A stretch of DNA of 64,000 bases. It comes from an uncultured Candidatus Saccharibacteria bacterium (GTDB lineage Bacteria; Patescibacteriota; WWE3; UBA101185; UBA10185). Shown here in pieces: positions 1-23,894 of this stretch. Position 1 is the first letter of the stretch, and each line of letters starts with the position of its first letter. Location: assembly GCA_964510435.1 (NCBI GenBank), contig CAZEBU010000002.1, positions 5,458-69,457 on the forward strand, given 5' to 3'. Below the pieces are notes generated by a model. It did no database searches and had not been told where the DNA came from. It saw only the letters and a list, made by a program, of their open reading frames with translations. The position numbers were made by a program, and so were the translations under genes.

Positions 1-180
1 AAATGGTACACCAAGTAGATACCCATTCAACATACCTTTTCCTTCAGGACATCCGACATAGGTAATACCCACTTCCCTATCACGTAAAACCCTAGTTATA
101 TTAAGCACTATCTTATCCCCTCCACCCATACTCTTTTCATCCACTTGCGCATTAAAAATTACCACCATCTCCCTTTTCAT
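1..180 (-). CDS. Hypothetical protein, partial. The N-terminal ~60 aa (MKREMVVIFNAQVDEKSMGGGDKIVLNITRVLRDREVGITYVGCPEGKGMLNGYLLGVPF...) lie in the window and the rest runs off the window start.
   Basis: Own translation of the minus strand. The ATG at 180..178 overlaps the TGA stop (179..177) of the upstream methyltransferase as ATGA coupling. The frame stays open to position 1. It is missing from the ORF track because it is truncated. Confidence 0.4.
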   Translation of the reverse strand, partial: MKREMVVIFNAQVDEKSMGGGDKIVLNITRVLRDREVGITYVGCPEGKGMLNGYLLGVPF

Positions 181-860
181 TTCTTTACTGCCTTTATAAC
201 TATAGTGGAACCCAAGGTAGGAAAAACTTTCGCTAATAATTTACTGTTTATTTTTCCTTCTATATCAAAATTAACGACTGTAGATACTGAATTCACAGTC
301 TTGAAACCATGCTCCCCCAGTAAATTTTTCATAGTAGAAAAGGTAAAGTAACGAATATGCCCGGCATCCTCACTCCCTAAGGTTGTTTCTAGTAGAGGGC
401 CTTTACCCAATAACAACATCAATCTTCTCCCCAAGGTAGCCACGTTCGGAGTTGTAATGATTAGTACTCCACCTGGTATTAGAACATGGTTAATGTTTTC
501 AAGAAAAGAGTCTGTATCGTAAATATGTTCGATAATTTCTCCTGCCACAACTAAATCAAATTTTGTTTTGACATTTTCACCCCAATTTTCCTCAAGATTA
601 AGTTTTTTAACATTTAAACCCCTCTTCCTAGCCTCTTTTACTGCGTTGCTTGATACATCAATTCCCTGCGTTTTAAACCCTAGGTTTTCCATAAGACTCA
701 TGAGATACCCACCGCCGCACCCCACATCTAGAACCGTTCCTTCCTCAGGAAGTAGCGAAATTATCACCTGAAATCTTACCTTCGTGGCTTCGTTCATATC
801 TCCTAGGTCTTTATATTTTTCAGTATTAAATTTTTCTATTAATTCACTCTTATTTTGCAT
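177..860 (-). CDS. Class I SAM-dependent methyltransferase (Methyltransf_11/12-like)
   Basis: The Gly-rich SAM-binding motif I, VLDVGCGGGY, is followed by acidic D at the end of beta2 (GIDVS) and by motif post-I/II (DLVVAGEIIEH). Length is 227 aa. Confidence 0.8.
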   Translation of the reverse strand: MQNKSELIEKFNTEKYKDLGDMNEATKVRFQVIISLLPEEGTVLDVGCGGGYLMSLMENLGFKTQGIDVSSNAVKEARKRGLNVKKLNLEENWGENVKTKFDLVVAGEIIEHIYDTDSFLENINHVLIPGGVLIITTPNVATLGRRLMLLLGKGPLLETTLGSEDAGHIRYFTFSTMKNLLGEHGFKTVNSVSTVVNFDIEGKINSKLLAKVFPTLGSTIVIKAVKK

Positions 861-1824
861 AGCCTAATAAACCTTTAATGAAACCTGATATACCTTTTAA
901 TTGATTCGCATCTCTTGTTCTTATTGCATTATAGACCCAATAAAAATTTAAGAGCAGTGTGTTCAGAAATACACCTATCACCCCTTTAAAAGATTTCGGC
1001 CTTATGTGTTTTCGATAAAATATTCCTGTGTCTAAGCCAATTATATAAGCATTTCTTGATGATCCCATTCTCAAATGGTGGTGAGAAATAACTTTAGGAT
1101 TAAAAATTACTTTATAACCTACCTTTTTTATACGGATAAACAGATCGCCGTCAGCATGATTAAAATTAAATCTAGTATCAAAACCACCTACTTCCTCTAA
1201 GACACTTATTTTTATCACCATACTTGAAGTTGTGGCTAAATCAATTTCTTGTCGAGGAAAATCTTTAGCCTCAGGTAGTGCCGCTCCTAAACTATACGCG
1301 CCGCTTTCAAATAGATTACCGGGCGCTAAGACTTTGCCTTCCATTGCAAAATGCAAGTAAGGCCAAACCAGTATTCTGAAAAATATGTTTTTCTGTGAAA
1401 TCAAGTACAAACGATGCATTTCCCCAGTAGGGTAGGTTGTTGAAATAATTGGCCCGGTAACCACCCCAATACTATCATCGCTAGTTAGTTCCTTGTGCGC
1501 GTTTTCTAGCCAGTCAGGTTCTAGTTCAACATCGTCTGCTACATAGGCGAGTAGTTCTGTTTGTGCGTTTCGCCAACCAATCTCAAAAAGATGAGATAAC
1601 TTCTTCTTGGAATCATTGATCAATTTCAGACGACTCATGTCAAAGGAATGCTTTTTAAGTAAGGGGTTGAGTCTCGACAAGTCTTTATAATTTTCCACTA
1701 ACAATACCATGTGATCATCATAGGATTGGTTAAAAATGGATTTCAAAGTTCTTGGCAACTCTTTATCTCTAAGCTTGCTTGGATATGTGTTTACTATGAA
1801 AGTGTATTTTTCTTTTATTCCCAT
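850..1824 (-). CDS. Family 2 glycosyltransferase (GT-A fold)
   Basis: N-terminal FIVNTYPSKLRDKELPRTLKSI..QSYDDHMVLLVEN and a DXD-like VADDVELEPDW are typical of GT2. It overlaps the downstream MTase by 11 nt. Confidence 0.7.
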   Translation of the reverse strand: MGIKEKYTFIVNTYPSKLRDKELPRTLKSIFNQSYDDHMVLLVENYKDLSRLNPLLKKHSFDMSRLKLINDSKKKLSHLFEIGWRNAQTELLAYVADDVELEPDWLENAHKELTSDDSIGVVTGPIISTTYPTGEMHRLYLISQKNIFFRILVWPYLHFAMEGKVLAPGNLFESGAYSLGAALPEAKDFPRQEIDLATTSSMVIKISVLEEVGGFDTRFNFNHADGDLFIRIKKVGYKVIFNPKVISHHHLRMGSSRNAYIIGLDTGIFYRKHIRPKSFKGVIGVFLNTLLLNFYWVYNAIRTRDANQLKGISGFIKGLLGYAK

Positions 1825-1883
1825 AAATCAAATGGCGATATCGTAGTCATATTTTAACATTATGGATTTGTTACTTGTTATAA

Positions 1884-2771
1884 TTGCTAAATATCAGCAT
1901 GAAAAATATTTTATTTAATGTTTTTAAGAAAGTTGTTAAGCCTCTTGAAAATAAAGGCTTATGGAAACTACCTCTAGTACCTATCATCTATGAAAAGGTC
2001 TACTCGCTTATCACCAACAATTCTGTATCTATGATTGAATATGATAACCTAAATATTTATGGTTATCACAATGATTCCGGTATGTTTCGAATCATGCAAC
2101 TCAACACGCATAACAAGTTCAAAGAGTTGGAATTATTTAAAAAACTTGTTCAAGGTACAGATTTCGTGATCGATATAGGAGCAAATATTGGAGTTAACAC
2201 TTTACTTGCTGGTAAATATATGAATAAAAATGGGGTAGTCCTTTCCTTCGAACCGAATTAAAAAAATTTCCTTATATTGAAAAGAAATGTGAATGAAAAT
2301 AATTTTAGCAATATTAAAATTTATAACCTAGCAGTAGCGGAAAAAAACAAGCAAGCAGAACTTAATATTGACAAGTATAGTTCCGGAGATCATTCGTTTT
2401 CGAAGAAGAATGTTCCAAGATACGCAAAATCCACATATGTAGAATGTACGAGTCTTGATGATTTCTTTAGTAAAAGTTACAGAAATAAAATAATAGATTT
2501 GCTCAAAATTGACACGCAAGGAGCTGAGATTTTAATTATTCAGGGAGCAAAAAAACTATTTGAGGAAAAAAGAATTAGTAAAATTTATATGGAATACTGG
2601 CCAGAGGGAATAATAAACGTGTCAGGAGAGAATAATTTACTTGATATGCTAAAGGAATACGGATTTAACATTAGCATAATTGAGGACGAGACGTATGAAC
2701 CTAAGGAATTAGATCTTGTAGACATACTACCCAACAGATATTATGACTTACTTTGTGCACTAGATTCCTAA
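1884..2771 (+). pseudogene. FkbM-family SAM-dependent methyltransferase (Methyltransf_21). It is interrupted by a single in-frame TAA at 2259-2261. ORFs 1884..2261 and 2277..2771 are in the same frame.
   Basis: The two track ORFs share frame 0. Joining them gives ...VIDIGANIGVNTLLAG...VVLSFEPN*KNFLILKRNVNENNFSNIKIYNLAVAEKNKQAELNI...LKIDTQGAEILII. That matches the FkbM consensus (DiGAniG ... afEPnpenfelLkkNl ... avsdk.g.a.l ... lKiDvEGaE) straight across the stop. Confidence 0.7.
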
Positions 2772-2780
2772 TGACTTAAA

Positions 2781-4061
2781 CTACTCATTACCAACCTGCC
2801 CTGTACCTTCCCAAACACTCTCCTTTCTAGTTCCGGGGTTAAAAATAACCCCCCCGAAAAGTCTGCTAAGAATGGGAAACGAATCTATCAGTAAATAACC
2901 CAGCACCATAAGCCTGCACGTAAATTTTTCACATTTCTTTACACTTGTTTGCGTATAGTATTCCTCATATTTCTTGATAATTTTTTCCCAAGGCATAGCT
3001 CGGGCTTTCTCCAAACCGCGATTGCTAAGTTCAGACAAAACCACGGGGTCATCAAGAAGTTTTTCAATAGTTTCCGCCAGCAATTCCGGATCCCTTGGCT
3101 CAAGCATAACACCGGTTTCCCCCACAACTTCCGGATTGGAACCACAGTTGGTAGTAAGTATCGGCGTCCCACAAGCCATGGCTTCTAAATACACCCAGCC
3201 AAATCCTTCGTACAGCGTGGGGAGTACGAATAAGTCAGCCAGGACATAGTATTTAGGTAATATAGGATTTACGTTCGAAATTTCCCCAATAAATCTCACA
3301 TAATCTTTTAATTTGTACATGAAAGCCTTATCTTCCAAAAACTTCCTTTCGACCCCATCACCCACAATTAACAGTTTAATGTTTCTAATCCTCCTCACGT
3401 TGACTAAAATATGCATAGCTTCAATAAGTGTAATGAGATTTTTTCTGGGATCTAGTCTACAAACAGTTAGTAGCACTTTTGTATCTTCGTTCCGTTTGTA
3501 TTTTTCCGCTAATTCATCAACTTCCAGATGAGGATTAAATCTCTCCAAATCAATACCTTTAGAGATCACTCGTGCTGAATAACCATATTTTTTACTTTGC
3601 TCATTCATAAAGTGTGTTACATGCACTACCCCATCAGCTCTTTTCCCTTCTAGTAATTCCAAGGGCGTATCGCCAGCCAAACAAATAACATAAGGGATAC
3701 CAAAAAATAACTTTATAAACCTCGCCAACAAGGCCTCTAATGAAAAATGTATGGAAATTACGTCAAACCTCTCACCCTTAATGTAAATTTGCACAAACTT
3801 TACAAAACTTTTTAGTAAAAATAAGAAGGCATAAAAAATCCCAAAGAATCCGTACGAATAATACCCTTTTGGGGATTTAAGAAAATGAGTTTTTATTCCT
3901 CTAATACCCTGTAAAGCATTCCCTTGCGTGGTTATTACAGTAACACTGTGTCCCCTTTTGACCGTCCAGTGAATAAAATCCTTCATAAAAGTTTCGTTGC
4001 CGCCCTCGTTGTAGCCAAGCCACCTATTTATTAATAAGATGTTTAATTTCTTATTTTGCAT
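2781..4061 (-). CDS. GT4-family glycosyltransferase (GT-B fold, retaining)
   Basis: The C-terminal domain carries the canonical EX7E region PTLYEGFGWVYLEAMACGTPILTTNCGSNPEVV. Length is 426 aa with an unusual hydrophobic C-terminal tail. Confidence 0.85.
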   Translation of the reverse strand: MQNKKLNILLINRWLGYNEGGNETFMKDFIHWTVKRGHSVTVITTQGNALQGIRGIKTHFLKSPKGYYSYGFFGIFYAFLFLLKSFVKFVQIYIKGERFDVISIHFSLEALLARFIKLFFGIPYVICLAGDTPLELLEGKRADGVVHVTHFMNEQSKKYGYSARVISKGIDLERFNPHLEVDELAEKYKRNEDTKVLLTVCRLDPRKNLITLIEAMHILVNVRRIRNIKLLIVGDGVERKFLEDKAFMYKLKDYVRFIGEISNVNPILPKYYVLADLFVLPTLYEGFGWVYLEAMACGTPILTTNCGSNPEVVGETGVMLEPRDPELLAETIEKLLDDPVVLSELSNRGLEKARAMPWEKIIKKYEEYYTQTSVKKCEKFTCRLMVLGYLLIDSFPILSRLFGGVIFNPGTRKESVWEGTGQVGNE

Positions 4062-7000
4062 AGTTTTTTAAGCAAAGTAATTATATTGTAACTAATGAGA
4101 AGAGTATAAAGTAAGACAGAAAAATACAACCAAACTCTAGATAATTTAGCTGGAGAGAATTCAATGATAATTTCTTTTGCGCCCCCCAGTACATTCTCAT
4201 CCAAAATCCAGGAATTAGCATAACCGTTAGCCACAAAGTGTGGTGCAAAGATTTCTTGTCCTTCTTCATCGTATAGTTTCCACTCCGAATTGAACTGCTG
4301 GTTAAGGATGAGTACGTGATTTCCAAACAAGCTGCCAAGATTACCCACACGATATTTAGTAAGGGATTCTTCCTTAAAATCAGGCTGAACCTCTAAAGAT
4401 CTAATTTCCGGGATAATATTTTCATAATATATGGCCGGAAGCTGTTTTATACCAAAATTGAAGTCCTTCAGCTTGTAACCTTGGCTATCGGATATATTAA
4501 AGAGTAGAATGTAAAAACCCTTTGTGGCAACATCAGACTGCAATAGTCTCGTTACGGCAAACAATTTATCAGCTATCTCCTCGGGATTAGTCGGTACCAG
4601 AAAATAAGCTAGTCGCCTTCCCTTTTGGTAATTATCTCTTTTTGCACCAACCAGATACTCATCTTTAAGACTATCGTACTCTTCAATAATGGCTATGCCC
4701 ACACTCGGTTCCATTTTGTCGTATTTAAAGGAAAATTCATAGTTCAGAGAAGGAACTGTCTCTTCTACCTTAAAATAAGCTACATTATCCATTTCGTCTA
4801 CAAATGAGCTCTGCTCTGTAGTTTGCAAACTGAATCTGGTCAGCGCCACCAATGATTTCAATAACTGGTCATCGTTTACCTTTTCGGACGTAAATAATGT
4901 GGAACTAAGAAAGTCGCCATAATCAATAAGTGCTATATCTTCAGAATCAAAATCGTATATCTCAATTAACTTATCGCTGTCAAGTGATTCGGCACTCTTG
5001 ATAATTTCATAATCGGAAACATGAGACATGATAAGCTCACCCAAACCATCTTCATCAAAGTAGTAACAAATTCCCTGGCAAACTGTCGTATTACCTAAAA
5101 GCCACTCTTTAAAATCATCAAACAATAACCTCCCGCCCTCCTCCGTATAGCTAATGTCTTTATACATTTTGAAATTATGCTTTGCAAAAACGGTGTCGGC
5201 ATAGTTCACATGCGTAAATAGATCCTGAATAAGCAAAAAGTACTTTAAATCACGCTCCTCAAGAGGCACAGCAGAAAATACTTCCTGCATTTTTTGGTAA
5301 TTATCCACATATTCCTTGAAAGAAATCTCAGTGTCAGCTTCTTCGTGTAAAACAACTTCAGCTAATCTACGCGAATTATTATTGATAAGCAAACTATATG
5401 CCTCCCTATAACTACTGGCGTTCTCCACTCGTGATCTTTCTTTCTTCAGGTTAAGTTGGTACGAAAAAAGATTGCTGGGAGGCTGTACGTACCTGGGTAA
5501 TGAAAAACCTGCGGGCTTCATGTTGTTTAGATCAACGGAATAGTATCTTTTAGGAAAAACCAAGCGTGGGTATCCCTCCGAATTTGCTAAGTTTTCATCA
5601 AGCAAAACATCATACTCATCCATATAGCTTAGTAAAGTGTCATACGTGTAAACCCGCTTTTCGTTGGTGAATATAAAGTTATTGCTCAGTTTTATTTTTT
5701 GCGAAGGATCCACTACTTCGAATATGGCCACACGATCTGAAGTGTAACCTAGAGACTCCCTTGTAACCTCCCTAAACAAGTTTGACGCACTTACCTTATC
5801 AAAAAGATACCAGTAGTCAGGGCTCATCTTATCAAAATAAAAAACCAGATACTGCACATCCAGTTTTTTCATGATCGTCTCCACGGAATCGTCAAATTCC
5901 TCCATTAACTTGCGCACGAAGCCGGCATAGAAGGTATTGGAAACGTCGGTATCCTTTCCGGTAATTTTCACAAACCCCTGCGCAGGTGTTATATCGTAAA
6001 AGGACGATTGGAATCCTCTGTACTCACCATGAAACTCTTTCCTGCTAAAATCTTCTGAGCTTGAGGTAATGGGAACTTTTAAAACTTTGCTTTTAATGTC
6101 TTTTTTAAACAAGAAATTTTCTACATCTATATAGTCATGGGCATACTCAAAGGTACGCAGCTTAATATTTTCGATTTCTCCCTTGTCTTCGTATAATTTC
6201 CATAAAATGAAGGGGTTAGCGTTGAGAATTACTAACAATACGCTGAGATAGAAGATTTTACGGTTTTTCTTGTAAAAATAGTGTAAAAAGGCCGCCATAA
6301 AAATAGCACTAACCAAAGAAAGTAAAGCAATATTCCTCCCGGGATCTCTAATGATGTTGGTAAAGGGAAGCTTTGACAACCTGTACGAACCTAGCATTAA
6401 AAGTGTAAATGGGTACAAAGTTATAAAAAGCAAGCTAATTTTATGAATATTTCTTAATACTTTTACTTTGACGGCACTAAAAATGACAATTAAAACTCCG
6501 ACAAATGAGATGAGAGTCAAAAACTTCAAATACGAAGATTCGTAAGAATAATTAAAAATAGTTCCCCAACCACGCACAATATTTTGCAGTTGAAATCTAG
6601 TCCACATCCCCAAACTTACTGAACTAAGCACGTTATCCGAACCGAATACCTTGGGATCTTTAAAAGTAAATAGATTTATCAACCAGTAAAGATTAAGCGC
6701 TATTAAAAACACGTGCAGCAAAAAGGAATAAATAAGATATCTTCTTAGAAGCTTCTTCTCTCTAAGAAAACTAAGTCCCAATGCAAGTATAGTTATTGAG
6801 TACCAGACTATGGTCGTGGAGTTGGCTAAGGCTAGTGAATAAATAAGCAGACAGACTATCAGATACGCTACTTTATTTTCCCGCACAGACCTTAAAAATA
6901 GCAAGATAAACAAGGGCAGCACGGACATGGAAAAAAGCATGTAGTCCCAACCAATAACCGTAAAATTAAACATGAAAGGTGATGTTTGAAAAATAAAACC

Positions 7001-7390
7001 ACCAATAAACGAGGATGTCTTGTTTAAGCCAAAATATCTCAGAAGATGATACATACTTAAGCCAGCTGCAACGAAATAAGCCAGTAAAATTAGCTTTGAG
7101 ATAAAAGCTCCGCTTAAACCTAGCTTAAAGATCAGATTAATTAAAAAAATAAAAGGCAGAGACGACCGTACCGGCTCATAACCACCGATCAAGGAAAAAT
7201 TCCTCCAGGGGGAAAGGGCACTTTGTAACCACAAATCGCTTTGCAGCTTGGTATAAGGAAAAGACCAATCACCACCAACTATAATACCTTTGGATAAAAA
7301 TGCCGGTAATAAAAAAAATAGGCTGATAAATAGGAAGAGTAGAGCTGCAATTAACTTATCGTTTTTATAAATTTTTCTCTTTATATCCAT
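4043..7390 (-). CDS. Large (1115 aa) polytopic membrane protein. About 400 aa of N-terminal TM helices are followed by a ~650 aa extracytoplasmic domain and a C-terminal TM anchor. It is a putative GT-C-type glycosyltransferase with YfhO/AftD-like architecture.
   Basis: There are many hydrophobic segments in the first 400 aa (LIAALLFLFISLFFLLPAFL, LILLAYFVAAGLSMY, ...). A long hydrophilic domain follows, and the terminal helix is VWLYFSVLLYTLLISYNIITLL. The family assignment is inferred from architecture only. Confidence 0.6.
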   Translation of the reverse strand: MDIKRKIYKNDKLIAALLFLFISLFFLLPAFLSKGIIVGGDWSFPYTKLQSDLWLQSALSPWRNFSLIGGYEPVRSSLPFIFLINLIFKLGLSGAFISKLILLAYFVAAGLSMYHLLRYFGLNKTSSFIGGFIFQTSPFMFNFTVIGWDYMLFSMSVLPLFILLFLRSVRENKVAYLIVCLLIYSLALANSTTIVWYSITILALGLSFLREKKLLRRYLIYSFLLHVFLIALNLYWLINLFTFKDPKVFGSDNVLSSVSLGMWTRFQLQNIVRGWGTIFNYSYESSYLKFLTLISFVGVLIVIFSAVKVKVLRNIHKISLLFITLYPFTLLMLGSYRLSKLPFTNIIRDPGRNIALLSLVSAIFMAAFLHYFYKKNRKIFYLSVLLVILNANPFILWKLYEDKGEIENIKLRTFEYAHDYIDVENFLFKKDIKSKVLKVPITSSSEDFSRKEFHGEYRGFQSSFYDITPAQGFVKITGKDTDVSNTFYAGFVRKLMEEFDDSVETIMKKLDVQYLVFYFDKMSPDYWYLFDKVSASNLFREVTRESLGYTSDRVAIFEVVDPSQKIKLSNNFIFTNEKRVYTYDTLLSYMDEYDVLLDENLANSEGYPRLVFPKRYYSVDLNNMKPAGFSLPRYVQPPSNLFSYQLNLKKERSRVENASSYREAYSLLINNNSRRLAEVVLHEEADTEISFKEYVDNYQKMQEVFSAVPLEERDLKYFLLIQDLFTHVNYADTVFAKHNFKMYKDISYTEEGGRLLFDDFKEWLLGNTTVCQGICYYFDEDGLGELIMSHVSDYEIIKSAESLDSDKLIEIYDFDSEDIALIDYGDFLSSTLFTSEKVNDDQLLKSLVALTRFSLQTTEQSSFVDEMDNVAYFKVEETVPSLNYEFSFKYDKMEPSVGIAIIEEYDSLKDEYLVGAKRDNYQKGRRLAYFLVPTNPEEIADKLFAVTRLLQSDVATKGFYILLFNISDSQGYKLKDFNFGIKQLPAIYYENIIPEIRSLEVQPDFKEESLTKYRVGNLGSLFGNHVLILNQQFNSEWKLYDEEGQEIFAPHFVANGYANSWILDENVLGGAKEIIIEFSPAKLSRVWLYFSVLLYTLLISYNIITLLKKLCKIRN
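4081..4350 (-). other. Track ORF, probably spurious. It lies inside the 1115-aa gene in another frame.
   Basis: It overlaps the 3' part of 4043..7390 on the same strand in a different frame, and there is no recognisable domain. Confidence 0.1.
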
Positions 7391-8560: not shown

Positions 8561-9594
8561 GCATGCTCTCCAAGGTGCTCTTGTATGAGATTGGTGTTGG
8601 TGATGATCCAATCAGCCATTTTCTCCACACCTTCCTGTGGTATCGTTTTGGGTTCCCAGTCAAGTTCATCCTTAATTTTTGAGACATCTGATATGTAGAC
8701 AGGTTGATCCCCGGGTCGCCATTCGTCAAACTTATAGTCTATTTTCTTTTCCAGAAGACCCTCCAGCATCTCCAATAACTCCAGCAACGATAGGGTGTTG
8801 TTTGGCCCTCCTCCCACGTTGTAAATTTCTCCCGAAACTTTATCGATGTTTTTTGTTGCTAAATCCCAAGCTTCAAATAAATCATCGGCGTATAAAACAT
8901 CTCTCACCTGCATTCCATCACCAAAAATGGTTATCGGCTTACCTAGTTGAGCAGCAATCGTAAACCAGGCAACCCAACCCTGGTCTTCGATACCAAACTG
9001 TCTTTTACCATAAATGCAAGACTGTCTCATAACTACTGATCTAAGATCATACATTCTGGAAAAATCGCGTACATACTGATCCGCTGCACCTTTGGAACAT
9101 CCATACGGGGAATGAAAATCCAACAATCTATCTTCAGAAATACCTTTAGGTAAATCTTTAAAAACGTAGCGATGACCCTCTTTAACAATTTCAATCTCAG
9201 ACATTCCTCCATAAACCTTATTAGTTGAGGAATAAATAATCAGGGGTTTTCTCTCCGACCTGCGAATAGCCTCCAAAACATTAATCGTACCTAGAGCATT
9301 GGTGTCAAAGTCATCTTTGGGGTATTCATAAGAAGTTGTAACAGCCACCTGCCCGGCCAAGTGATAAACAGCATCTACCTGTTCTATTAAATTTCGCATT
9401 TTGTCAAAATCCACTCTTATATCAGCATGCACAAATTTCACTTTAGGGTATTTTTCCTGGAGATAAATAAGATTGGCCACGGCTCCTTTTCGGGAAAGAT
9501 TATCCAGCAAGATAACTTCCTCACTGCGATCCAATAGTTTTTCAGCAAAATTCGTACCTGTAAATCCGCAACCGCCTGTTAGCAAATATTTCAT
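8557..9594 (-). CDS. NAD-dependent sugar-nucleotide epimerase/dehydratase (extended SDR; CDP-paratose-2-epimerase / UDP-glucose-4-epimerase-like)
   Basis: There is an N-terminal Rossmann motif LLTGGCGFTGTNFAEKLL and a catalytic region YSSTNKVYG plus Y..K. Length is 345 aa. Confidence 0.85.
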   Translation of the reverse strand: MKYLLTGGCGFTGTNFAEKLLDRSEEVILLDNLSRKGAVANLIYLQEKYPKVKFVHADIRVDFDKMRNLIEQVDAVYHLAGQVAVTTSYEYPKDDFDTNALGTINVLEAIRRSERKPLIIYSSTNKVYGGMSEIEIVKEGHRYVFKDLPKGISEDRLLDFHSPYGCSKGAADQYVRDFSRMYDLRSVVMRQSCIYGKRQFGIEDQGWVAWFTIAAQLGKPITIFGDGMQVRDVLYADDLFEAWDLATKNIDKVSGEIYNVGGGPNNTLSLLELLEMLEGLLEKKIDYKFDEWRPGDQPVYISDVSKIKDELDWEPKTIPQEGVEKMADWIITNTNLIQEHLGEHA

Positions 9595-9635
9595 AACTGA
9601 TAAACATCCTACCCGATTTTTTGGAAATGTTAAAA

Positions 9636-11761
9636 TGCAGCTAGTGTTAATGAATAAAATCCAACCAAAAATAATTTATTACGCCTCACTTCTACTATTT
9701 ATTTTTTCACTGATTATAACTTTGATTTCCATGCTAAACGGTGTTCTGCCCCACCACTTGTTTTTTAACTCCGATGCTTTGTACTTAGCCACTATTCATA
9801 AAAGCATCTTTGTCGAAGGTTTCTCATTTACCAGTTATAAATTTCCCGACGCACCTTTCTTCTTTCCTGATTTTCTGATATTTAGCATCATATTTGCCGT
9901 CACAAAGAATTATCTGCTCACTAATATTCTCACTGCCTGGTCAATTCTTAGTATGGTTTTCATTGTTTTATATAAAATTGTGCAGTATCTGCTACCAAAA
10001 AGGCACTATCTAAAAAAATCCTTGCTCCTCTCGGGTTTCGCCTTGCTCATTGCTCTCATGGCGCAAAATCAGCTATTTCTCCACATTTTCCTGCTAATTT
10101 CCCCGGTATTTCACGAAGGGGAACTGCTCATAGTCATGCTCAGTTTATTGATCATCTTCGAGCTAGTACGCAAAGAGAGGGTCTTCCTTTATCCTATCCT
10201 ATTTGTGCTCATTGCTTTGGTAACTTTTTCGGATAAATCGGTGGTAAAGGATTTTACCGCTCCTTTTGCCATAGTTGTAGCTGTTACCTATTTCCTCGAT
10301 AAAGATATTTTCAAAAGATTTTGGAAAGCGCTTGTGGTTATAGTGCTGGCCACATTTGTCGGTAGTGTTTTGTATTCGATCATCTTGCCTTTCCCCAAAT
10401 CTTTTCCCGGCATCGTGACTTATAGTGGAAGAAATTTCGAGAACATGCTTAACAGCTTTAGAGACATCGCTAGTGAGAGGGTTCTTTTTGCTAACATAGC
10501 TAATCATAGGTACGAGTTTTCCAACTACTTAGCCTTATTTACTATTTTTATTGTTTTTTCTCTAGCTACTGTTGTTTTCCTCTTGTTTAAATACCTAAAA
10601 AAAATATCCCGGAAGGTGCAGCTTGATTTGTATGAAAAAAGAATGCTTCTATTTGGGCTCTTCATTTTAGGGCAAAGTATTCTTAATTTTGCTGCCACCA
10701 TATTTTTTGGTTATTACCACAGCTTAGTGCACACCCGCTATTTCACTCCTATGATGATCTTCCCTTATACCTGGTTTCTCATCTTTACGGGGGTACAGCT
10801 AGCTAAACATTTGCAAGAGAACTATTTAAAATATCTAAATATAGCGGTAATATTTCTGGTGGTGTTTGTCTCCTCACTTTTTTTCACTAAGATCAATGAG
10901 GGAGGTTTAGCCAACTATAAAAATTACAAACCTCCCAATTCCGTGTGTATTGATAAAATAGCCAAAGAGCATAATTTAAAATACGGTTTATCCGAACTAT
11001 GGAACACCGTGCACACGTTATTTTCAGATGAGGACGTGATTTTACATCAAATTTCCTCTCAAGGAAGTTTTCTCGAACCCTCCCACTGGCTAACTTCCTA
11101 CGAATGGTACGTGCAAAAGGCTCCGGAAATCCCTGAGCCACCGGAATATTCATTTATCGTTACGGAAAAGTTCGATACTAGTAAATTTGATAAGGTTCTT
11201 GGGGAGCCGTTATACGTTTACGATTGTCCGGAAACGCAGGTTTATGTTTACGATCCCCAAGTTATAGCACCAGTGGTAAATGGTTTATTTAGCTCTTGGT
11301 ATTTCTTCGATAGGCTTGACAGCGTGGGTGACGTAGTGGAAATCCCGGGTGGGCAGTTTGAGGAAATGATCTTTAATGTTGATGAAAATATTTCCTTGGT
11401 GGAACGCAAAACAACCCCCGAAAATCACCTACAAAGTGCTGATCAAGAAGGTCTGATCTCTTCCGGACCGTATGTGACCCTTAAAAAAGGTCTTTATAAG
11501 ATATCCCTGTGGTATCGTACGGACACGGAGGATGCCGGCTCGGTTGATATTATAACCTCACCACCGCTACAACGAACTAACTTTAATTTAGAAAATACCA
11601 ACGATGAAACTAGATCTTTTTCCGGTGAGGTAGAGATCGGCAAGGATATAAAGAAAATTACCATTAATCCTTACAATGTGGGTGCCATCAGACTAATGAT
11701 CAACTATAGCGGCGGCGGCACCCTAACTATTGAAAAATTGGTTATAGAAAGAATCGACTAG
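9636..11761 (+). CDS. Polytopic membrane protein (about 470 aa of TM region) with a ~230 aa C-terminal extracytoplasmic beta-rich domain. Function unknown.
   Basis: The start is taken at ATG 9636 (MQLVLMNKIQPK...). The track ORF at 9473 runs antisense into the epimerase. There are 12 or more hydrophobic helices. The C-terminal tail is GQFEEMIFNV...LYKISLWYRTDTEDAGSVDI...TLTIEKLVIERID. Confidence 0.6.
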
Positions 11762-16862: not shown

Positions 16863-18494
16863 CTACTTAACCCTTTGGTAGACGTTGTATAAGTCAACAT
16901 GACGCAATTTTATAGTGTCGAGGAATTCCAGTTCGAATCTGCCCTCGTTGGCTGAATCGTCTTCATAAACAGGGTAAACAAAATAATTAGTTCTTATGGC
17001 CATGGGTGTGAGATCTTTTATAGTAGCCCTTCCGCCAATTTCTTCAATGAAAGGCCAGATCTGTGTGTAGTACTTTTCCTGAAAGCCTATGGTAAGTTTG
17101 TTCTCGATCTCCGCAGTGTAAAGAACTTCATCTACGCTCTGTCCTTCCAAAAATGCCTCGTGATCATTTTCCATTTTGATTTTTTGGAAGTAACTGATAA
17201 TTTCTTGCTGGCCAAGCATCCATTTAGGTTCTATGACATAAATGCCTTTGCTAAGTCCCCCAAAAAGAGGGGAATAATAGGAAAAGTAATTGGGGTGCAA
17301 ATACAGGGCGGTGATAAGAAAGTACACTACTACCCCAACAGTGGCCAACCAACCTAAGTACTTAATTTTCCCGTTAAGGTAATCAAATAAATACCGGAAA
17401 TAAAAACTGGCTATAAGAATGAGGGCAAGTATTGCCGGTAATATATAACGGTCAAGTTTTTTAGATGGTATAGAAAGTTCTACTAAGTAAAATACTGAAA
17501 ATAATAAAGCGTAAATTATAAACAACTTCATTTCCCTGCTTTTAATAAATTTTCGAAAAGTAATTAAAAAGGCCAGTAAACCTATGAATAAAGGTAAAGA
17601 AATTCTGTAAAGAATAACCAGAGGGTAAAACAACCACCCCGGGTCTGCCACCCAATTCCCCATGAACAGCTGGAAATGACCCCTTTCTACTCCAATAGTA
17701 AAAATACCCCTATATAAAGTTCCTAGAGCTAGCCTGGCGTGAGTCCACATAGCCGGCCATATGAGAATAAAAAGTGCAGCTACCACACCCATCCATAAGA
17801 TAAAAGTTTTGCTTGCACCTACAGTAGCCGCTCTGAAATTTTTTTCCCTAACAAAGTTTTCGATGAAGATGATCAGTGCTGAAAAAGGTATTAAAAAGAC
17901 TGCAGACGTTTTAGTAAGAAAAGCAGTGGCAGCAAATAGAGCGGAGATTATCAGATGTTTTCTCCTACGAGTCCAAAAATAGTAATAAAGCCAAACAAAG
18001 CTGGCGATCATTAGGGTAGACATCAAACCCTCCAAATGAAACATCCTAGTTAAGGCTATATAAAAAGGTTCCAACATCATGAAAAAAATAGCCAGCAGGG
18101 CGTACTTTTTTCCAAAAATTTCCTTTAGGGGGTGGAAAATAAGCGCCAGCAGAGCACCGATCATTAAAATAACAAAAAACTTTTGCACAGAATGCAGTTG
18201 AAAAATAGCGGCAATATTATTATCCGGAGGTAAAACACCCAACAAAGATTCGTAGTAAAAATTAAAGGCTTTCACGCCGGCGGCACCCAGCCACATCAGG
18301 GTAACCCCGGGGTGGTATTTTTGTATGGTTTTCTCGAATTCCAAGTTAAATACCCCGGAACCAAAATCGTAAGTGCGTGCTTTCCACTTCCATGCGTCCG
18401 TGTTGAACATATCGTGGCCCAAGCTAGGCAGCCTAGAGAGAACAAAAAACAGAAATACTAAGATAAATAATTTGTTTTCCTTGATTATTCTCAT
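16863..18494 (-). CDS. GT-C-type membrane glycosyltransferase (PMT_2 / GT39-ArnT-like), paralog A
   Basis: The N-terminus has TMs and the first extracytoplasmic loop carries ..YHPGVTLMWL... Length is 543 aa with a C-terminal soluble part. It is a paralog of 19951..21519. Confidence 0.65.
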   Translation of the reverse strand: MRIIKENKLFILVFLFFVLSRLPSLGHDMFNTDAWKWKARTYDFGSGVFNLEFEKTIQKYHPGVTLMWLGAAGVKAFNFYYESLLGVLPPDNNIAAIFQLHSVQKFFVILMIGALLALIFHPLKEIFGKKYALLAIFFMMLEPFYIALTRMFHLEGLMSTLMIASFVWLYYYFWTRRRKHLIISALFAATAFLTKTSAVFLIPFSALIIFIENFVREKNFRAATVGASKTFILWMGVVAALFILIWPAMWTHARLALGTLYRGIFTIGVERGHFQLFMGNWVADPGWLFYPLVILYRISLPLFIGLLAFLITFRKFIKSREMKLFIIYALLFSVFYLVELSIPSKKLDRYILPAILALILIASFYFRYLFDYLNGKIKYLGWLATVGVVVYFLITALYLHPNYFSYYSPLFGGLSKGIYVIEPKWMLGQQEIISYFQKIKMENDHEAFLEGQSVDEVLYTAEIENKLTIGFQEKYYTQIWPFIEEIGGRATIKDLTPMAIRTNYFVYPVYEDDSANEGRFELEFLDTIKLRHVDLYNVYQRVK

Positions 18495-18497
18495 ATT

Positions 18498-19970
18498 TTA
18501 TTGATAGATATATATCTTAGGACCTTTTCTATACTCGTTATCAATACTCAAGAGCAATTTTCTATCAGCTTTGCCCGCATCTTCCGAGACAAGAACCGAT
18601 CTTGCCACCATATCATCCGCTTTTTTGATATGTACATTTTTTATCTCCACCCTCTCCAACACAGGTTTAAAATCAGCGTCTTCATAATACACAGTACTTA
18701 ACTCTCTCTTATTATCCTGAAGCCAATAATATAGCAGCTGGCGGGTGTCTTTTCGATAAAAAGTATAAGAACCTTGTAAAGTCAGCAAAACCGGTACTAA
18801 AAAAACCACCACCCAGATAAGTTCTTTATACTTGAACTTAAATTTAAACTTCTCCAAAGCTGAGATCAACAAACCAATGCCGCTGATAATAACAAATGGG
18901 TAGGCTACAAAATAATAGTGTGCCCGGTCATTCTCAAAACCTGTAATGTAGTATATGAAAAGCATACCCAGAACATTAAGATACAAAAGATCCCTTGTGT
19001 TAAAAAAACTTTTGTCTTTAATGATTTTCAGCAAGATATAAAACACAGAAACCAGAAACATAATTGCAAATGTATAACCAAAGTTCTCAAAAAGTTTTTC
19101 CGGAAAAATTAGAATAAATTCTCTAATATGCTCTCCTAAAGGCAAACTACCCACATTCTTAAATTGCCATAAAGCACCTTTCGGGCCATCCGTTCTTAAA
19201 AAAGTCTGGTAATCAAGAACGGCAAAGGGAGTTCCCGCCACAAAACCTATTAAAGAAGTAATTCCTGCAAAAACAAGGTTCTCTAAAGACTCCAAACTAA
19301 TTATTTTTTCGCTTCTTTCCCACCACAACCTAAAAAAATGCGCGAGTAAAATAGCAAAGATGATAATGGCTCCGTTATACTTTGTAGAAGCGGCCAAGCC
19401 CGCAAACAAGCCTGCTAATAAGTAATTAGAAACATTTTTCTTAAAGAGTATCCGTGTTGAAAAATAAAGCGACCAAGTAAGAAAAAAGGTCATAGGGACA
19501 TCCGCCAGCGAATAGTGAGAATGCCATACATGAAAGGGAACAACAGCAAAAGCCAGCGCCGAGAGTAAACCTGCTCTCCTGCCAAATAGATCCCTGCCAA
19601 TCAAAAATATAGGTAAAGCCGTTAAAGCACCTAAAACAGCTGAAAAAACTCTGGTTAACAAGTAGAAGATCAGTTTGTCATTCCAGATTATAGGTGCCAA
19701 GAAATAAGTATATTCCTTATAACCTAAGAGCTGGATCAAATCTCTTAATTTTGCAAAAACCATGTATAAGAAATAATTTAGGTATATATAGAGATGCGGC
19801 CAGTCAAAATGCCCGGGATTCTTAAAAAATCTAATACCTAGTGCTGAGCGAACGATGGTTGGCTCATCAGGGTGAAAAATAAATGGGAAAGAATGTGAAA
19901 TACCAATAAGCCTAATGGCTATGCCCACAGCTATAATTATTATAAGATATTTACTTGTCTTGTTTAACAT
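18498..19970 (-). CDS. GT-C-type membrane glycosyltransferase (GT39/ArnT/PMT_2-like)
   Basis: An HPDEP acidic motif sits in the first periplasmic loop after TM1 (IFHPDEPTIVRSALG). There are about 11 TMs and a short C-terminal soluble domain. Confidence 0.65.
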   Translation of the reverse strand: MLNKTSKYLIIIIAVGIAIRLIGISHSFPFIFHPDEPTIVRSALGIRFFKNPGHFDWPHLYIYLNYFLYMVFAKLRDLIQLLGYKEYTYFLAPIIWNDKLIFYLLTRVFSAVLGALTALPIFLIGRDLFGRRAGLLSALAFAVVPFHVWHSHYSLADVPMTFFLTWSLYFSTRILFKKNVSNYLLAGLFAGLAASTKYNGAIIIFAILLAHFFRLWWERSEKIISLESLENLVFAGITSLIGFVAGTPFAVLDYQTFLRTDGPKGALWQFKNVGSLPLGEHIREFILIFPEKLFENFGYTFAIMFLVSVFYILLKIIKDKSFFNTRDLLYLNVLGMLFIYYITGFENDRAHYYFVAYPFVIISGIGLLISALEKFKFKFKYKELIWVVVFLVPVLLTLQGSYTFYRKDTRQLLYYWLQDNKRELSTVYYEDADFKPVLERVEIKNVHIKKADDMVARSVLVSEDAGKADRKLLLSIDNEYRKGPKIYIYQ

Positions 19971-21519
19971 AAAAACGCCAATATTCCAATCCGTTTATAA
20001 AAATAGACGAATCCTGGATAAATTTTACCTCACTTTTAAGAACTTTTTCGGGAATCTCTTCATTTACAGCCAGAACAAGAATTTTATAATCTCCGGTACC
20101 GGAAATTCTAATATCTGAAACCAGGGAGTTGGGATAGATTGATCTTATGGGTTTTGTGTCTATGAATCCCACCTTTACTTGAGAACCATAATTCTCCTGT
20201 AGATGTTTCTTAACTTCAAAAATGCCTATACCAAAAGATTTCTGGGCTATTATCTTGTTGGCTTGCTGACTATTTCCGAATAAGGGACTGGTATAGGTAA
20301 ATTGGTAAGGGTGTAGCTTGATCACCGGCCAGATAACGTAGACCATAAATATTATTAAGAAAAGGAGTTTAAGGTTTTTATGAGAGTGATAAACTTTTAG
20401 CAGGCGGCAATATCCAAAAACAGCCATGATACCTAAGATGGGAAAGAGTACTATCATGTACCTATCGAGTTTCTTTGCGGGAAAAGTCATGACCAGAAAA
20501 TATCCCAGATAGAAAATGGCAAGATATATAAAAAGTCTTTTGGCTTTTTCTTTTAAATTCATCTTCGAAAAACTTCTTATAAAATTCAGGAGATAGAGCA
20601 ATACCCCACCTAGTAAGAAAGGCGATGTCTTCATTAATATCACTAGCGGATAAAAGAAAATACCCGGATCCTTGGTAAGCTCTCCAAAAAATATCTGACT
20701 ATGTCCTTTTCGAACACCTATTCTGCTACCTTCACTAAATATATCCTTTAGTACTTCCCACGGTTTATCCCACAAAGCAGGGAAAAATAAAAAAGTTGCC
20801 GCCAAAAAGGGTAGTGTGATTACTAAAACATACTTCAAAACTTTCCGAAAATCCCTCCGGGTATAATATAAGAAAGATCCTCCCACAATAATAGTGAATA
20901 GGTAGGCACCTACACCAATACTTCTGGTTAAAAAGGAGGCTGCTAAAAACAAGCCGCAAATTAAACCATAAGTTTTATCATCTGTCTTAATGTAAAGATA
21001 GGAAAGCAGTAACGAAGAAAAAATAAATAGCATAAAGATAAGGTCCATATGGTACAGTCTTGAATTACCAACAATAAAGGGCTCCATGCTCATAACAAAC
21101 ACCACCAGTAATGACTTTTTGAAGCCTATTACTTTTGTCAACCAGTAGATTATTAATATACTTAGCACTAGCTGTACCAAGACCAGGGAATATTTGGCAA
21201 TAAAGTGGAAAGCGTAAAAGCTAAATTGATCATAAAGGGTAATGTTGATGATCTGCTTAAAGATCTCTATAGGAATTCCCGTGAGCCACATTAAAGATAC
21301 GCCAGGATGATAGTGCTGATAAGTTTTGCTAAATATCTGGTGCTTAAGACCAACAACAAACTGTTCTGATCTGTAGTGCCAATTTACAGCATCCGGATTA
21401 ATTGTATCGAAACCCAGCTGAGGAAGTCTTGTGATAAGAAATAGGATCACAAAAACAAGTAGCCAAATGATGGTCTTTTTATTAAGCGTCTTTACCCAAT
21501 GCATAGATAACTCCTCCAA
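19951..21519 (-). CDS. GT-C-type membrane glycosyltransferase (PMT_2-like), paralog B
   Basis: QHYHPGVSLMWL aligns with KYHPGVTLMWL of 16863..18494, and the topology is the same. Length is 522 aa. Confidence 0.65.
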   Translation of the reverse strand: MEELSMHWVKTLNKKTIIWLLVFVILFLITRLPQLGFDTINPDAVNWHYRSEQFVVGLKHQIFSKTYQHYHPGVSLMWLTGIPIEIFKQIINITLYDQFSFYAFHFIAKYSLVLVQLVLSILIIYWLTKVIGFKKSLLVVFVMSMEPFIVGNSRLYHMDLIFMLFIFSSLLLSYLYIKTDDKTYGLICGLFLAASFLTRSIGVGAYLFTIIVGGSFLYYTRRDFRKVLKYVLVITLPFLAATFLFFPALWDKPWEVLKDIFSEGSRIGVRKGHSQIFFGELTKDPGIFFYPLVILMKTSPFLLGGVLLYLLNFIRSFSKMNLKEKAKRLFIYLAIFYLGYFLVMTFPAKKLDRYMIVLFPILGIMAVFGYCRLLKVYHSHKNLKLLFLIIFMVYVIWPVIKLHPYQFTYTSPLFGNSQQANKIIAQKSFGIGIFEVKKHLQENYGSQVKVGFIDTKPIRSIYPNSLVSDIRISGTGDYKILVLAVNEEIPEKVLKSEVKFIQDSSIFINGLEYWRFYVKQDK

Positions 21520-22366
21520 TTAAGCTAACTCCTAGTCTAAAAAGATGGTAGACCAAGGAGGCGCTTAAACTTAAACTTCCTAGAACTCCTACTACGGCAA
21601 ATAGTTTCATGTACAAGGCATCCTGCACACCAATACCGTTTAGTGAGGGGATAAAAAATCCTGCCAAAGTAATTACCGGAAATATAAAAAGCGCATACAC
21701 AATAGGGAGCTTTATTCCTAAAGCCAGAAAAACAAAATACTGCGTAGCTATGGCAAGAAACTGTACTATAAATGAGGTAATAAAAGCCCATAAAAGTATT
21801 TTGTTCTTGCCTCGATAGGCATTTAACGAATGGTAGAGTTTTCTTACCTTTTCGGATCTGGAACTTAGAAAACTTAATAAATAAAAACCTATGAGTATTC
21901 CTACTACAAAAACTATTAAAATTAGCGCTCCCCAAATCCCCAGCATTTTTACCAAACTAAAAACAGAAATTAAACCTAGAGCAACAACTCCGGTAAATCT
22001 CTCCATAAAGGTAGCCGAAAAAGCATCCACAGCATCACCAAGCTTTTTTCCCAGTTTGTAAACTTTATAGACGTCTCCACCAATGCTGGTGGGCATGAAG
22101 TTGTTAAAAAATGCACCGGTAAAATATAGGTAGGTCAGGTATTTCACAGATACCCTCTCGGAATTCTTATGGATCAATAATGTTTTCCATCTATAGGAGC
22201 TGACAAGATAGTTTGTGACCAAAAGAAGTATGATAAACGGCACATATCCATAATCCAAAAGCCTAAAATTATTAAGAAAGCTTTCTTTATCCACACCATA
22301 AAAAATAATGGCTATAAGACTCACGCTTATAGTGAGTTTAATAATAAAGTTCCTTTTTTCTTTCAT
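21482..22366 (-). CDS. UPF0104 / LPG-synthase-TM family membrane protein (flippase-like domain)
   Basis: The protein is 294 aa with about 8 TMs. The N-terminal pattern KLTISVSLIAIIFYGVDKESFLNNFRLL..YVPFIILLLV is typical of the MprF-like flippase domain that often accompanies GT2 enzymes. Confidence 0.55.
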   Translation of the reverse strand: MKEKRNFIIKLTISVSLIAIIFYGVDKESFLNNFRLLDYGYVPFIILLLVTNYLVSSYRWKTLLIHKNSERVSVKYLTYLYFTGAFFNNFMPTSIGGDVYKVYKLGKKLGDAVDAFSATFMERFTGVVALGLISVFSLVKMLGIWGALILIVFVVGILIGFYLLSFLSSRSEKVRKLYHSLNAYRGKNKILLWAFITSFIVQFLAIATQYFVFLALGIKLPIVYALFIFPVITLAGFFIPSLNGIGVQDALYMKLFAVVGVLGSLSLSASLVYHLFRLGVSLIGGVIYALGKDA

Positions 22367-23832
22367 CTCTTCGAACCTTTAATAAAACCGGTAACTTTTT
22401 GGACAAAAGAAAACAGCTCCTCTTTTCTGATAAACCCTGCTATGTGTACTGACCATAAATACAAACCTACAAATATAAAATATGCCGGAAACTTAACATA
22501 AATATTAGAAATACTCCCCATATGGCTGACAACCAACGCCTGTACCATCAACAAAACATGCGCATAAGAAATAAACCTGATCTGCAGCCTACTTTGCAAG
22601 AGGCGCACCATATAAGCAAATCCTAAAAATGAACCCAAAAGCATTGAATACGACATGGTATAAACGGGGTTGTAAAACTTTCGGGTAATAAAATAGAAAC
22701 CTACGGTAACAATAAACATTAATAAAAATCCTAAAATCATATCTTTCACCTTTTTCGCGGGGATAGCCAAACTTGATTTTAAAATATTTATCAGAGAGAC
22801 AAAAATGAAACTAAACACCATGGGTAGCAACAAGGGTATTGCCTCGTTATATTTACTACTGCCGATCAAAACCTGTATTAACTCTTTTGCCCAATAAATT
22901 GCCGACATGGCAAAAAAGACGATAGTAACAAAGACTCTATTAAAGTTTTCGGCAAAGATATCCCTAAATTCCTTAATATTATGCACAAATTTCTCGGAAA
23001 AAACAGGTAGATTAACATCAGTTATGGCATCTGATACATGCATAAGTTTTTTGGCATACAACAAAGCAAAGGAATAGATTCCCAACCATTCAATATTACC
23101 GATAAATCCCAATAAGTTAGTTCCCGATCTTTCCCAGTTGATAACCAATATTTTTACAATGTAAATTGACATTCCTAAAGAAAACAATTCTTTGAAAATT
23201 TGTGTGAATTCATTTTTGGTGGGAAATCTCAATTTTTTGTAATAGGGTTTTAGGGCTATAATACCGTAACTTACAGTCTTTAGAGTTTCATGTATGAGTC
23301 CGGCATAAAAAAAGCCCAAAATCTTGTATTGATAAACCAAAGGAACGTAGAGGAGCAGGCTAACTAAAGCAACCACTACTTGGAAGATAAATAATTCTTT
23401 AAACCTCTTTGTGCCCGAAATAACTGCGTTAAAGATTGCTTGACTACCCTGCAGAAAGATGATCACCGCAAAAATTCGTAAAGGTAATAGTATCTCCATA
23501 AACTCATAGGCTGCAGAAATTCGCGGTGCAAAAACAAACAAACCCACGGCTATGGGAGTGGTTACCAGATATCTCACTGAAACGGTGGTAATAAATATTT
23601 TAAAGACATCTTTTTTCTTTTGGGCAGCAGCAATTTCTCTATTGGAAGCGCTAGCTAAGCCAAGATGTTGGTAGATCCCCAGTGCCGAACCCACCGAAAC
23701 CACTAACTGCACTAAACCCCACTCGCCAACACTCAATATGCGCAAAATTAAAAAGCTCTGGACTATACCCAAGAGCATGGCAGACATTCGAGAGACAAAA
23801 CTGATGAATTGCCACTTTTCTAATGAACGCAT
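22363..23832 (-). CDS. Wzx-like polysaccharide-biosynthesis flippase (MOP superfamily)
   Basis: The protein is 489 aa with about 14 TMs. The Polysacc_synt-like N-terminus is LLGIVQSFLILRILSVGEWGLVQLVVSV. Confidence 0.7.
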   Translation of the reverse strand: MRSLEKWQFISFVSRMSAMLLGIVQSFLILRILSVGEWGLVQLVVSVGSALGIYQHLGLASASNREIAAAQKKKDVFKIFITTVSVRYLVTTPIAVGLFVFAPRISAAYEFMEILLPLRIFAVIIFLQGSQAIFNAVISGTKRFKELFIFQVVVALVSLLLYVPLVYQYKILGFFYAGLIHETLKTVSYGIIALKPYYKKLRFPTKNEFTQIFKELFSLGMSIYIVKILVINWERSGTNLLGFIGNIEWLGIYSFALLYAKKLMHVSDAITDVNLPVFSEKFVHNIKEFRDIFAENFNRVFVTIVFFAMSAIYWAKELIQVLIGSSKYNEAIPLLLPMVFSFIFVSLINILKSSLAIPAKKVKDMILGFLLMFIVTVGFYFITRKFYNPVYTMSYSMLLGSFLGFAYMVRLLQSRLQIRFISYAHVLLMVQALVVSHMGSISNIYVKFPAYFIFVGLYLWSVHIAGFIRKEELFSFVQKVTGFIKGSKR

Positions 23833-23841
23833 AACTAAGTC

Positions 23842-23878
23842 ATTATATCTTGCTACGCTCGATGCGTCACTTTGTGAC
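23842..23878 (-). promoter_or_regulatory. Promoter P2. On the minus strand it reads AAAGTGACG -35, 17-nt spacer, TATAAT, 9 nt, then the ATG of wzx. The -35 lies inside the dyad GTCACtttGTGAC.
   Basis: Plus strand attata is at 23842-23847 and cgtcac at 23865-23870. The same architecture and the 16-mer GTCACTTTRTGACTAA recur at 36405-36420. Confidence 0.45.
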
Positions 23879-23894
23879 TAATCTAGTTTTGGGA

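Follow-up and report, generated by a model that had tools for sequence, protein, structure and literature searches.

The FkbM-family gene and its surroundings

The window analysed here is a stretch of 64 kb (positions 1-64000), and its first part, about 35 kb, is a surface-glycan island. The island carries a class I methyltransferase, at least nine GT2/GT4 glycosyltransferases, two Wzx-type flippases, three tandem PMT_2/GT-C enzymes, a DUF2079 protein, a sugar epimerase/dehydratase, a UDP-glucose dehydrogenase and a B12-binding radical SAM enzyme, all of them intact. A first-pass annotation had proposed, from two genes next door, that the locus makes a methylated glycan; the glycan context is confirmed and is much larger than was described. 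Within the island lies a gene of the FkbM methyltransferase family that is interrupted by a stop codon. The gene and its immediate neighbours are arranged as follows:

177..860, minus strand: class I SAM methyltransferase, intact (Methyltransf_23/11/25)
850..1824, minus strand: family 2 glycosyltransferase (GT2), intact, divergent neighbour (PF00535, E = 1.4e-9)
1825..1898, no strand assigned: divergent intergenic region of 74 bp between GT2 (minus) and the FkbM gene (plus), presumed promoter
1899..2258, plus strand: N-terminal fragment of the FkbM-family methyltransferase gene, 120 codons
2258..2269, plus strand: T2-A7-T3 tract, TTAAAAAAATTT, read directly from the sequence
2259..2261, plus strand: premature in-frame TAA, codon 121, equivalent to H124 of the intact homologue P0002
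2262..2771, plus strand: C-terminal fragment of the same FkbM gene, 169 codons plus the native TAA at 2769-2771
2781..4061, minus strand: GT4-family glycosyltransferase, intact, convergent neighbour (one-SNP variant 2838 G>C, N408K)

The premature TAA at 2259-2261 is in frame and falls within a single FkbM-family methyltransferase domain. The plus-strand codons around it read TTC GAA CCG AAT TAA AAA AAT TTC CTT, and the stop's T and its first two A's make up the T/A boundary of the T2-A7-T3 tract. The frame runs without a stop from 1884 to 2258 and again from 2262 up to the native TAA; when the gene is read through the stop there is neither a frameshift nor a second lesion, as the first-pass annotation had stated. 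The open downstream frame is not a chance pattern, with a random stretch of 169 codons of the same composition staying open at a probability of about 3e-5.

ATG 1899 is probably the true start of the gene, because the 120-aa product of the gene callers begins there and its M1 aligns with the closest homologues. This 120-aa product was called on four contigs. The N-terminal fragment consists of a lineage-specific N-terminal extension, beta1 with motif I, helix A, and beta2 ending in FEP (E118, P119), while the C-terminal fragment holds the remaining Rossmann fold and the KIDTQGAE motif. The public annotation of the C-terminal fragment is a 160-aa product (P0001) that starts at GTG 2289; position 2277, the earlier start given for a second open reading frame, is merely the first TTG past the stop.

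The FkbM gene is a lone plus-strand unit amid minus-strand genes, and the stop therefore has no polar effect. A promoter scan of the intergenic region at 1825..1898 gave nothing above shuffle expectation, and the promoter/terminator scan was uninformative.

Family assignment and position of the break in the fold

Family profiles were matched to the read-through translation (290 aa, with X at the stop). The FkbM domain profile PF05050 matched in one stretch, residues 92-256 against profile positions 1-171 of 173, with 75 bits against a cut-off of 22.7. TIGR01444 likewise matched in one stretch, residues 90-234 against positions 2-143 of 143, with 103.4 bits against a cut-off of 37.7. When the fragments were searched separately with TIGR01444, the N-terminal one covered profile positions 2-31 and the C-terminal one positions 34-143. 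The family identity given in the first-pass annotation thus holds, both profiles being matched well above their cut-offs. The gene is a member of the FkbM family by descent, but a disrupted one that is no longer a single uninterrupted open reading frame.

In most respects the read-through protein resembles the rest of the family (PF05050, Methyltransf_21; TIGR01444). It has the family's length of about 290 aa with a full-length profile match, the motif I sequence DIGANIG, the FEP acidic residue and a KIDxxGxE motif, and like the intact homologues, which occupy comparable loci, it is encoded among glycosyltransferases and flippases. Unlike the family, it is cut by TAA at codon 121, its nearest intact relative (P0002) is only about 40% identical, and it carries an N-terminal extension of about 90 residues that is common only to a few proteins from uncultured organisms.

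The catalytic landmarks are all in place. The SAM loop of motif I, DIGANIG, spans residues 92-98 on beta1, with D92, G94, A95 and G98 at least 90% conserved in the homologue alignment. At the end of beta2 the FEP acidic signature is present with E118 and P119, in a column conserved in 41 of 42 sequences, and the stop comes two residues further on. KIDTQGAE occupies residues 203-210, of which K203, D205, G208 and E210 are invariant. Together with E232, every invariant or near-invariant residue is kept (D92, G94, A95, G98, E118, P119, K203, D205, G208, E210 and E232). The family and its motif I loop suggest SAM-dependent methyl transfer, probably to a sugar-coat or glycan acceptor, the acceptor being suggested solely by the glycan-locus context.

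The first-pass annotation had placed the stop inside the family's most conserved block. This is correct for the surrounding block, FEPxxxNFxxLxxN, which is conserved, but not for the exact column of the stop, which is variable: across the 42 sequences it holds P in 23, S in 4, L in 3, Q, I and K in 2 each, and H in 1. Leucine is the residue in three of the four closest homologues.

To place the break in the fold we used an AlphaFold2 model of the closest intact homologue, P0002 (pLDDT 94.7, pTM 0.91). In this model beta1 spans residues 92-96, a helix 102-111, beta2 116-120 and a further helix 124-136, and H124, the residue equivalent to the stop, opens the helix after beta2. A fold search returned generic class I methyltransferases only. 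Judged from the model, neither fragment would amount to a complete SAM-methyltransferase fold. Among class I methyltransferases neither such fragment should be active alone, and on that general knowledge both fragments of the FkbM gene should be inactive by themselves.

Recurrence of the stop and the search for an intact allele

An exact look-up of both fragments found four further public contigs (L001-L004), all with the identical TAA and identical flanks:

Logan SRR6439360: contig sharing the identical TAA
Logan SRR6439358: contig sharing the identical TAA
NCBI GCA_006243175.1, VAPB010857169.1: contig sharing the identical TAA
NCBI GCA_006243215.1, VAPC010827892.1: contig sharing the identical TAA

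At least two sequencing runs and two assembly pipelines lie behind these four contigs, which match the window at 100% identity, without a mismatch, over 921-3589 bp. A literature search found no paper that cites the run or assembly accessions. The change at the stop is a substitution and not a homopolymer length error. Because the same TAA recurs across runs and pipelines and the lesion is of this type, a one-off assembly or sequencing error, one of the explanations in the first-pass annotation, is unlikely. The TAA allele is the consensus wherever the organism was assembled. More generally, independent public assemblies (Logan, NCBI) can substitute for read mapping when a suspicious stop codon is being vetted.

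A fifth contig, L005 (VAPB010096512.1), has one SNP relative to the window in 1930 bp, 2838 G>C, which changes Asn408 to Lys in the GT4 gene; it ends at window position 2572, before the part of the gene with the TAA site is reached. Since it differs by only this one SNP, a nearly clonal population is indicated, with at least two near-identical strains in the sample. The independent contigs break at 1350, 2183, 2270, 2390 and 2572-2595. Several of these ends (2183, 2270, 2390) lie within about 100 nt of the stop, L003 and L004 both begin at 1350, and L002 shares 24 bp (2572-2595) with L005. Either low coverage or micro-diversity lies behind the breaks around the FkbM gene.

We looked for an intact allele in several collections. 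Relatives at E <= 0.001 numbered 7,574, the best matches all being continuous proteins, and all homologues are one continuous protein of about 290 aa. An exhaustive search of 1.84 billion representatives for a close orthologue returned, below E = 1e-30, only the fragment itself; the next matches were 38-48% identical and continuous over the break. The best full-length match in a word-indexed protein search was 42% identical, although this negative is a weak one, as the same search missed the gene's own 120-aa N-terminal fragment (P0245), which is in the collection. In a scan of GTDB species genomes the best match was 34% identical. None of ten candidate revertant or intact proteins was present by exact look-up in a collection of 15 billion proteins, and a pattern of the flanking DNA with NNN at the stop codon had no match in JGI metagenomes. 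As for the proposal that the stop is a population variant, no intact allele turned up in these public collections, and a low-frequency sense allele is possible.

The nearest intact homologue, P0002, is about 40% identical overall, with 40% for the N-terminal and 38% for the C-terminal half. The halves are equally similar, and there is therefore no extra decay downstream of the stop. In the region 6001-7706 of contig L089, P0002 has as neighbours a sulfotransferase and, on the opposite strand, a second paralogue of the FkbM family. It is probably not the positional orthologue of the window gene, because its gene context differs from that in the window.

Split genes are also seen near another intact homologue, P0005. 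On its ENA contig (L091) a GT2 gene at 4755-5805 appears to be split into adjacent pieces of 92 + 276 aa and a GT4 gene at 10213-11393 into pieces of 217 + 173 aa. Either long-read sequencing introduced indel errors here, or another uncultured organism also has disrupted glycan genes.

Decoding of the stop and probable loss of the methyltransferase

The genetic code is the standard bacterial one. The ends of 52 confident genes in the window are TAA in 33 cases, TGA in 12 and TAG in 7, the TAA-ended genes including tuf, rpoB, rpoC and ribosomal protein genes. No internal stop codon, TAA included, was found in any other gene of the 64-kb window, and ARAGORN found no tRNA or tmRNA genes anywhere in it. 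Ribosomal protein L2 places the organism in the Patescibacteria (CPR); the closest match overall has 84% identity, and among named relatives the closest are a 'Patescibacteria group bacterium' (78%) and members of candidate division WWE3 (66-69%). Altered codes do occur in some Patescibacteria, UGA being read as glycine in Gracilibacteria and Absconditabacteria, which speaks for considering a TAA that is reassigned or decoded by a suppressor tRNA. Against this stand the use of TAA to end 33 of the 52 genes, with TGA and TAG as stops too, and the lack of another internal TAA or of any tRNA gene in the window. Stop usage effectively refutes reassignment, which the first-pass annotation had already called unlikely, and we regard this reading as extremely improbable.

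The context of the internal stop is also an ordinary one. The base after the 33 genuine TAA stops is A in 17, making TAA-A the commonest genuine terminator context in the window, and in five the sequence is TAA AAA, as at the internal stop. The 70 nt downstream fold no better than shuffled sequence (z = +1.04), giving no sign of a stimulatory RNA structure. No Shine-Dalgarno-like sequence was seen ahead of TTG 2277 or GTG 2289; an obvious Shine-Dalgarno is also missing from many other genes of the window. On this evidence the TAA site is not built for recoding. No orthologue above about 48% identity, in which conservation of the stop could be compared, was found among the 1.84 billion representatives or the GTDB species genomes, and the more distant homologues all have a sense codon. 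Two ways around the stop were rejected outright. Frameshift bypass fails because, past AAT, the -1 frame runs into a stop within 13 codons and the +1 frame within 7, and neither is in register with the downstream domain. Transcriptional slippage on A7 would leave the TAA in place.

We consider it very likely that an accessory glycan methyltransferase of the FkbM family has recently lost its function through a nonsense mutation, and that this allele is at consensus frequency in the sampled population. A recent nonsense mutation was among the three explanations offered in the first-pass annotation, and it is the favoured one, the rest of the gene being intact and the two halves equally similar to P0002. 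A single base change would have turned a sense codon into TAA. The ancestral codon may have been TTA (Leu), TCA (Ser), CAA (Gln) or AAA (Lys), each one step from TAA and each coding for a residue seen at the column; proline, the commonest residue there, is two steps away. Stop-creating changes make up 5.2% of all possible single-base substitutions in this A+T-rich gene, and such a nonsense event is therefore expected to be common and unremarkable.

Like the ancestral codon, the consequences for activity and for the glycan and the lesion's age are inferred. Ribosomes would terminate after Asn120 and release a 120-aa product with the SAM glycine loop and beta2, without the remaining Rossmann fold and the substrate side. 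The 169 codons downstream lack motif I and have no evident ribosome-binding site. The enzyme would thereby be lost, and the glycan made by the intact neighbour genes would presumably be one methyl group short. The lesion appears to be young, because the invariant residues are intact, the halves are equally similar to P0002 and the 169 codons are still open. The intact rest of the gene is equally compatible with a functional recoded or split gene.

The gene could be decoded at a low level in spite of the stop, either by near-cognate read-through of UAA or by a hop in which peptidyl-tRNA-Asn moves from AAT 2256-2258 to AAT 2265-2267, giving a little near-full-length enzyme and methylation that is attenuated rather than abolished. 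The perfect preservation of both halves and the identical AAT codons on either side of TAA AAA would fit such leaky decoding. There is also a report of low-level translation through the in-frame stops of disrupted Salmonella genes, or pseudo-pseudogenes (PMC9122581), which resemble the window gene in having a single in-frame stop in an otherwise intact gene. However, the Salmonella cases are mainly UAG followed by C (PMC9122581), whereas the stop here is UAA followed by A, the genome's standard terminator. The TAA-AAA context is the one in which genes of this genome normally end, no RNA structure lies downstream and the homologues compared all have a sense codon where the stop stands. A hop would moreover remove three residues from a loop of constant length in all 42 aligned homologues. 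We therefore think leaky decoding unlikely. A further version, in which the TAA is a tolerated low-efficiency decoding site (read-through or the 9-nt AAT-to-AAT hop) whose trickle of expression tunes glycan methylation, would explain why the rest of the gene is still intact, and we hold it to be quite unlikely. The fragments could alternatively form a functional split gene, with the 120-aa product and a product of about 160 aa, made by re-initiation at TTG 2277 or GTG 2289, assembling non-covalently into an active enzyme. The break does fall at a strand/helix junction and not within a secondary-structure element, the in-frame TTG and GTG are 16 and 28 nt past the stop, and the missing Shine-Dalgarno ahead of them is a trait shared with many window genes. 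Yet neither candidate start has a Shine-Dalgarno-like sequence, starting at 2277 or 2289 would remove 6-10 residues of a conserved helix (NFLILKRN), and the best matches among the 7,574 relatives are continuous. The fragments are separated by a single codon, the mark of a point mutation and not of an evolved split, and this reading seems very unlikely to us.

The remaining readings turn on the A7 run that touches the stop. Together with the contig ends at 2183, 2270 and 2390, which low coverage or micro-diversity could explain, a site next to a homopolymer might suggest an artefact, or a minority or chimeric consensus, in an organism that really has a sense codon. Agreement of the four additional contigs at this base, the nature of the lesion as a substitution and the absence of the ten candidate intact proteins from the 15-billion-protein collection all argue against it, and we give it very little credence. 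Glycan-modifying genes are often phase-variable via homopolymer tracts, and A7 slippage could in principle act as the switch of a contingency gene. Here, however, both open reading frames are already in the same frame; gain or loss of an A keeps T-A-A and only shifts the reading frame, each of the other two frames meets a stop within 7-13 codons, and the tract does not vary among the five assemblies. Phase variation is accordingly hardly credible.

For the nonsense allele, the closest functional precedent is the inactivation of wbeT (rfbT) in V. cholerae O1. Point mutations in that gene, stops included, inactivate the methyltransferase and convert Ogawa to Inaba (PMC5051702, PMC9927444, PMC5055329), stripping the terminal methyl group from the O-antigen (PMC5051702, PMC9927444). 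Both cases have a SAM methyltransferase of a surface glycan hit by a point mutation, with the other genes of the locus intact. Close homologues of the window gene have weak precomputed matches to the RfbT family (PF05575), but the window protein itself has none, and the organism is a different one. That the enzyme 'caps' the glycan, as the first-pass annotation put it, is suggested by analogy. If the loss was selected, for example by phage escape or changed host attachment, serotype switching in V. cholerae would be its parallel.

The importance of the allele is mostly local; it is a real but ordinary event. In annotation the locus should be one pseudogene and not a 160-aa 'FkbM' protein plus a 120-aa hypothetical protein. 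The gene is probably non-functional, and metabolic or glycan reconstructions should not count the methyltransferase as active.

Other genes of the island also stand out. Three large open reading frames, at 4043-7390 (minus), 9473-11761 (plus) and 26727-28262 (minus), encode proteins of 1115, 762 and 511 aa that had no Pfam match at E <= 1e-3, and the 1115-aa protein has numerous hydrophobic segments at its start. All three are candidates for uncharacterised glycan polymerases or surface proteins in this CPR lineage. The B12-binding radical SAM enzyme (PF02310 + PF04055; 11793-13454, minus) is embedded among glycosyltransferases and could be C-methylating or otherwise sugar-modifying. At 16863-21519 and 21482-26018, both minus, the three tandem PMT_2/GT-C-type paralogues are followed by LPG_synthase_TM, the second Wzx-like flippase and the DUF2079 membrane protein, a set of membrane glycosylation genes that is unusually dense for a small-genome bacterium.
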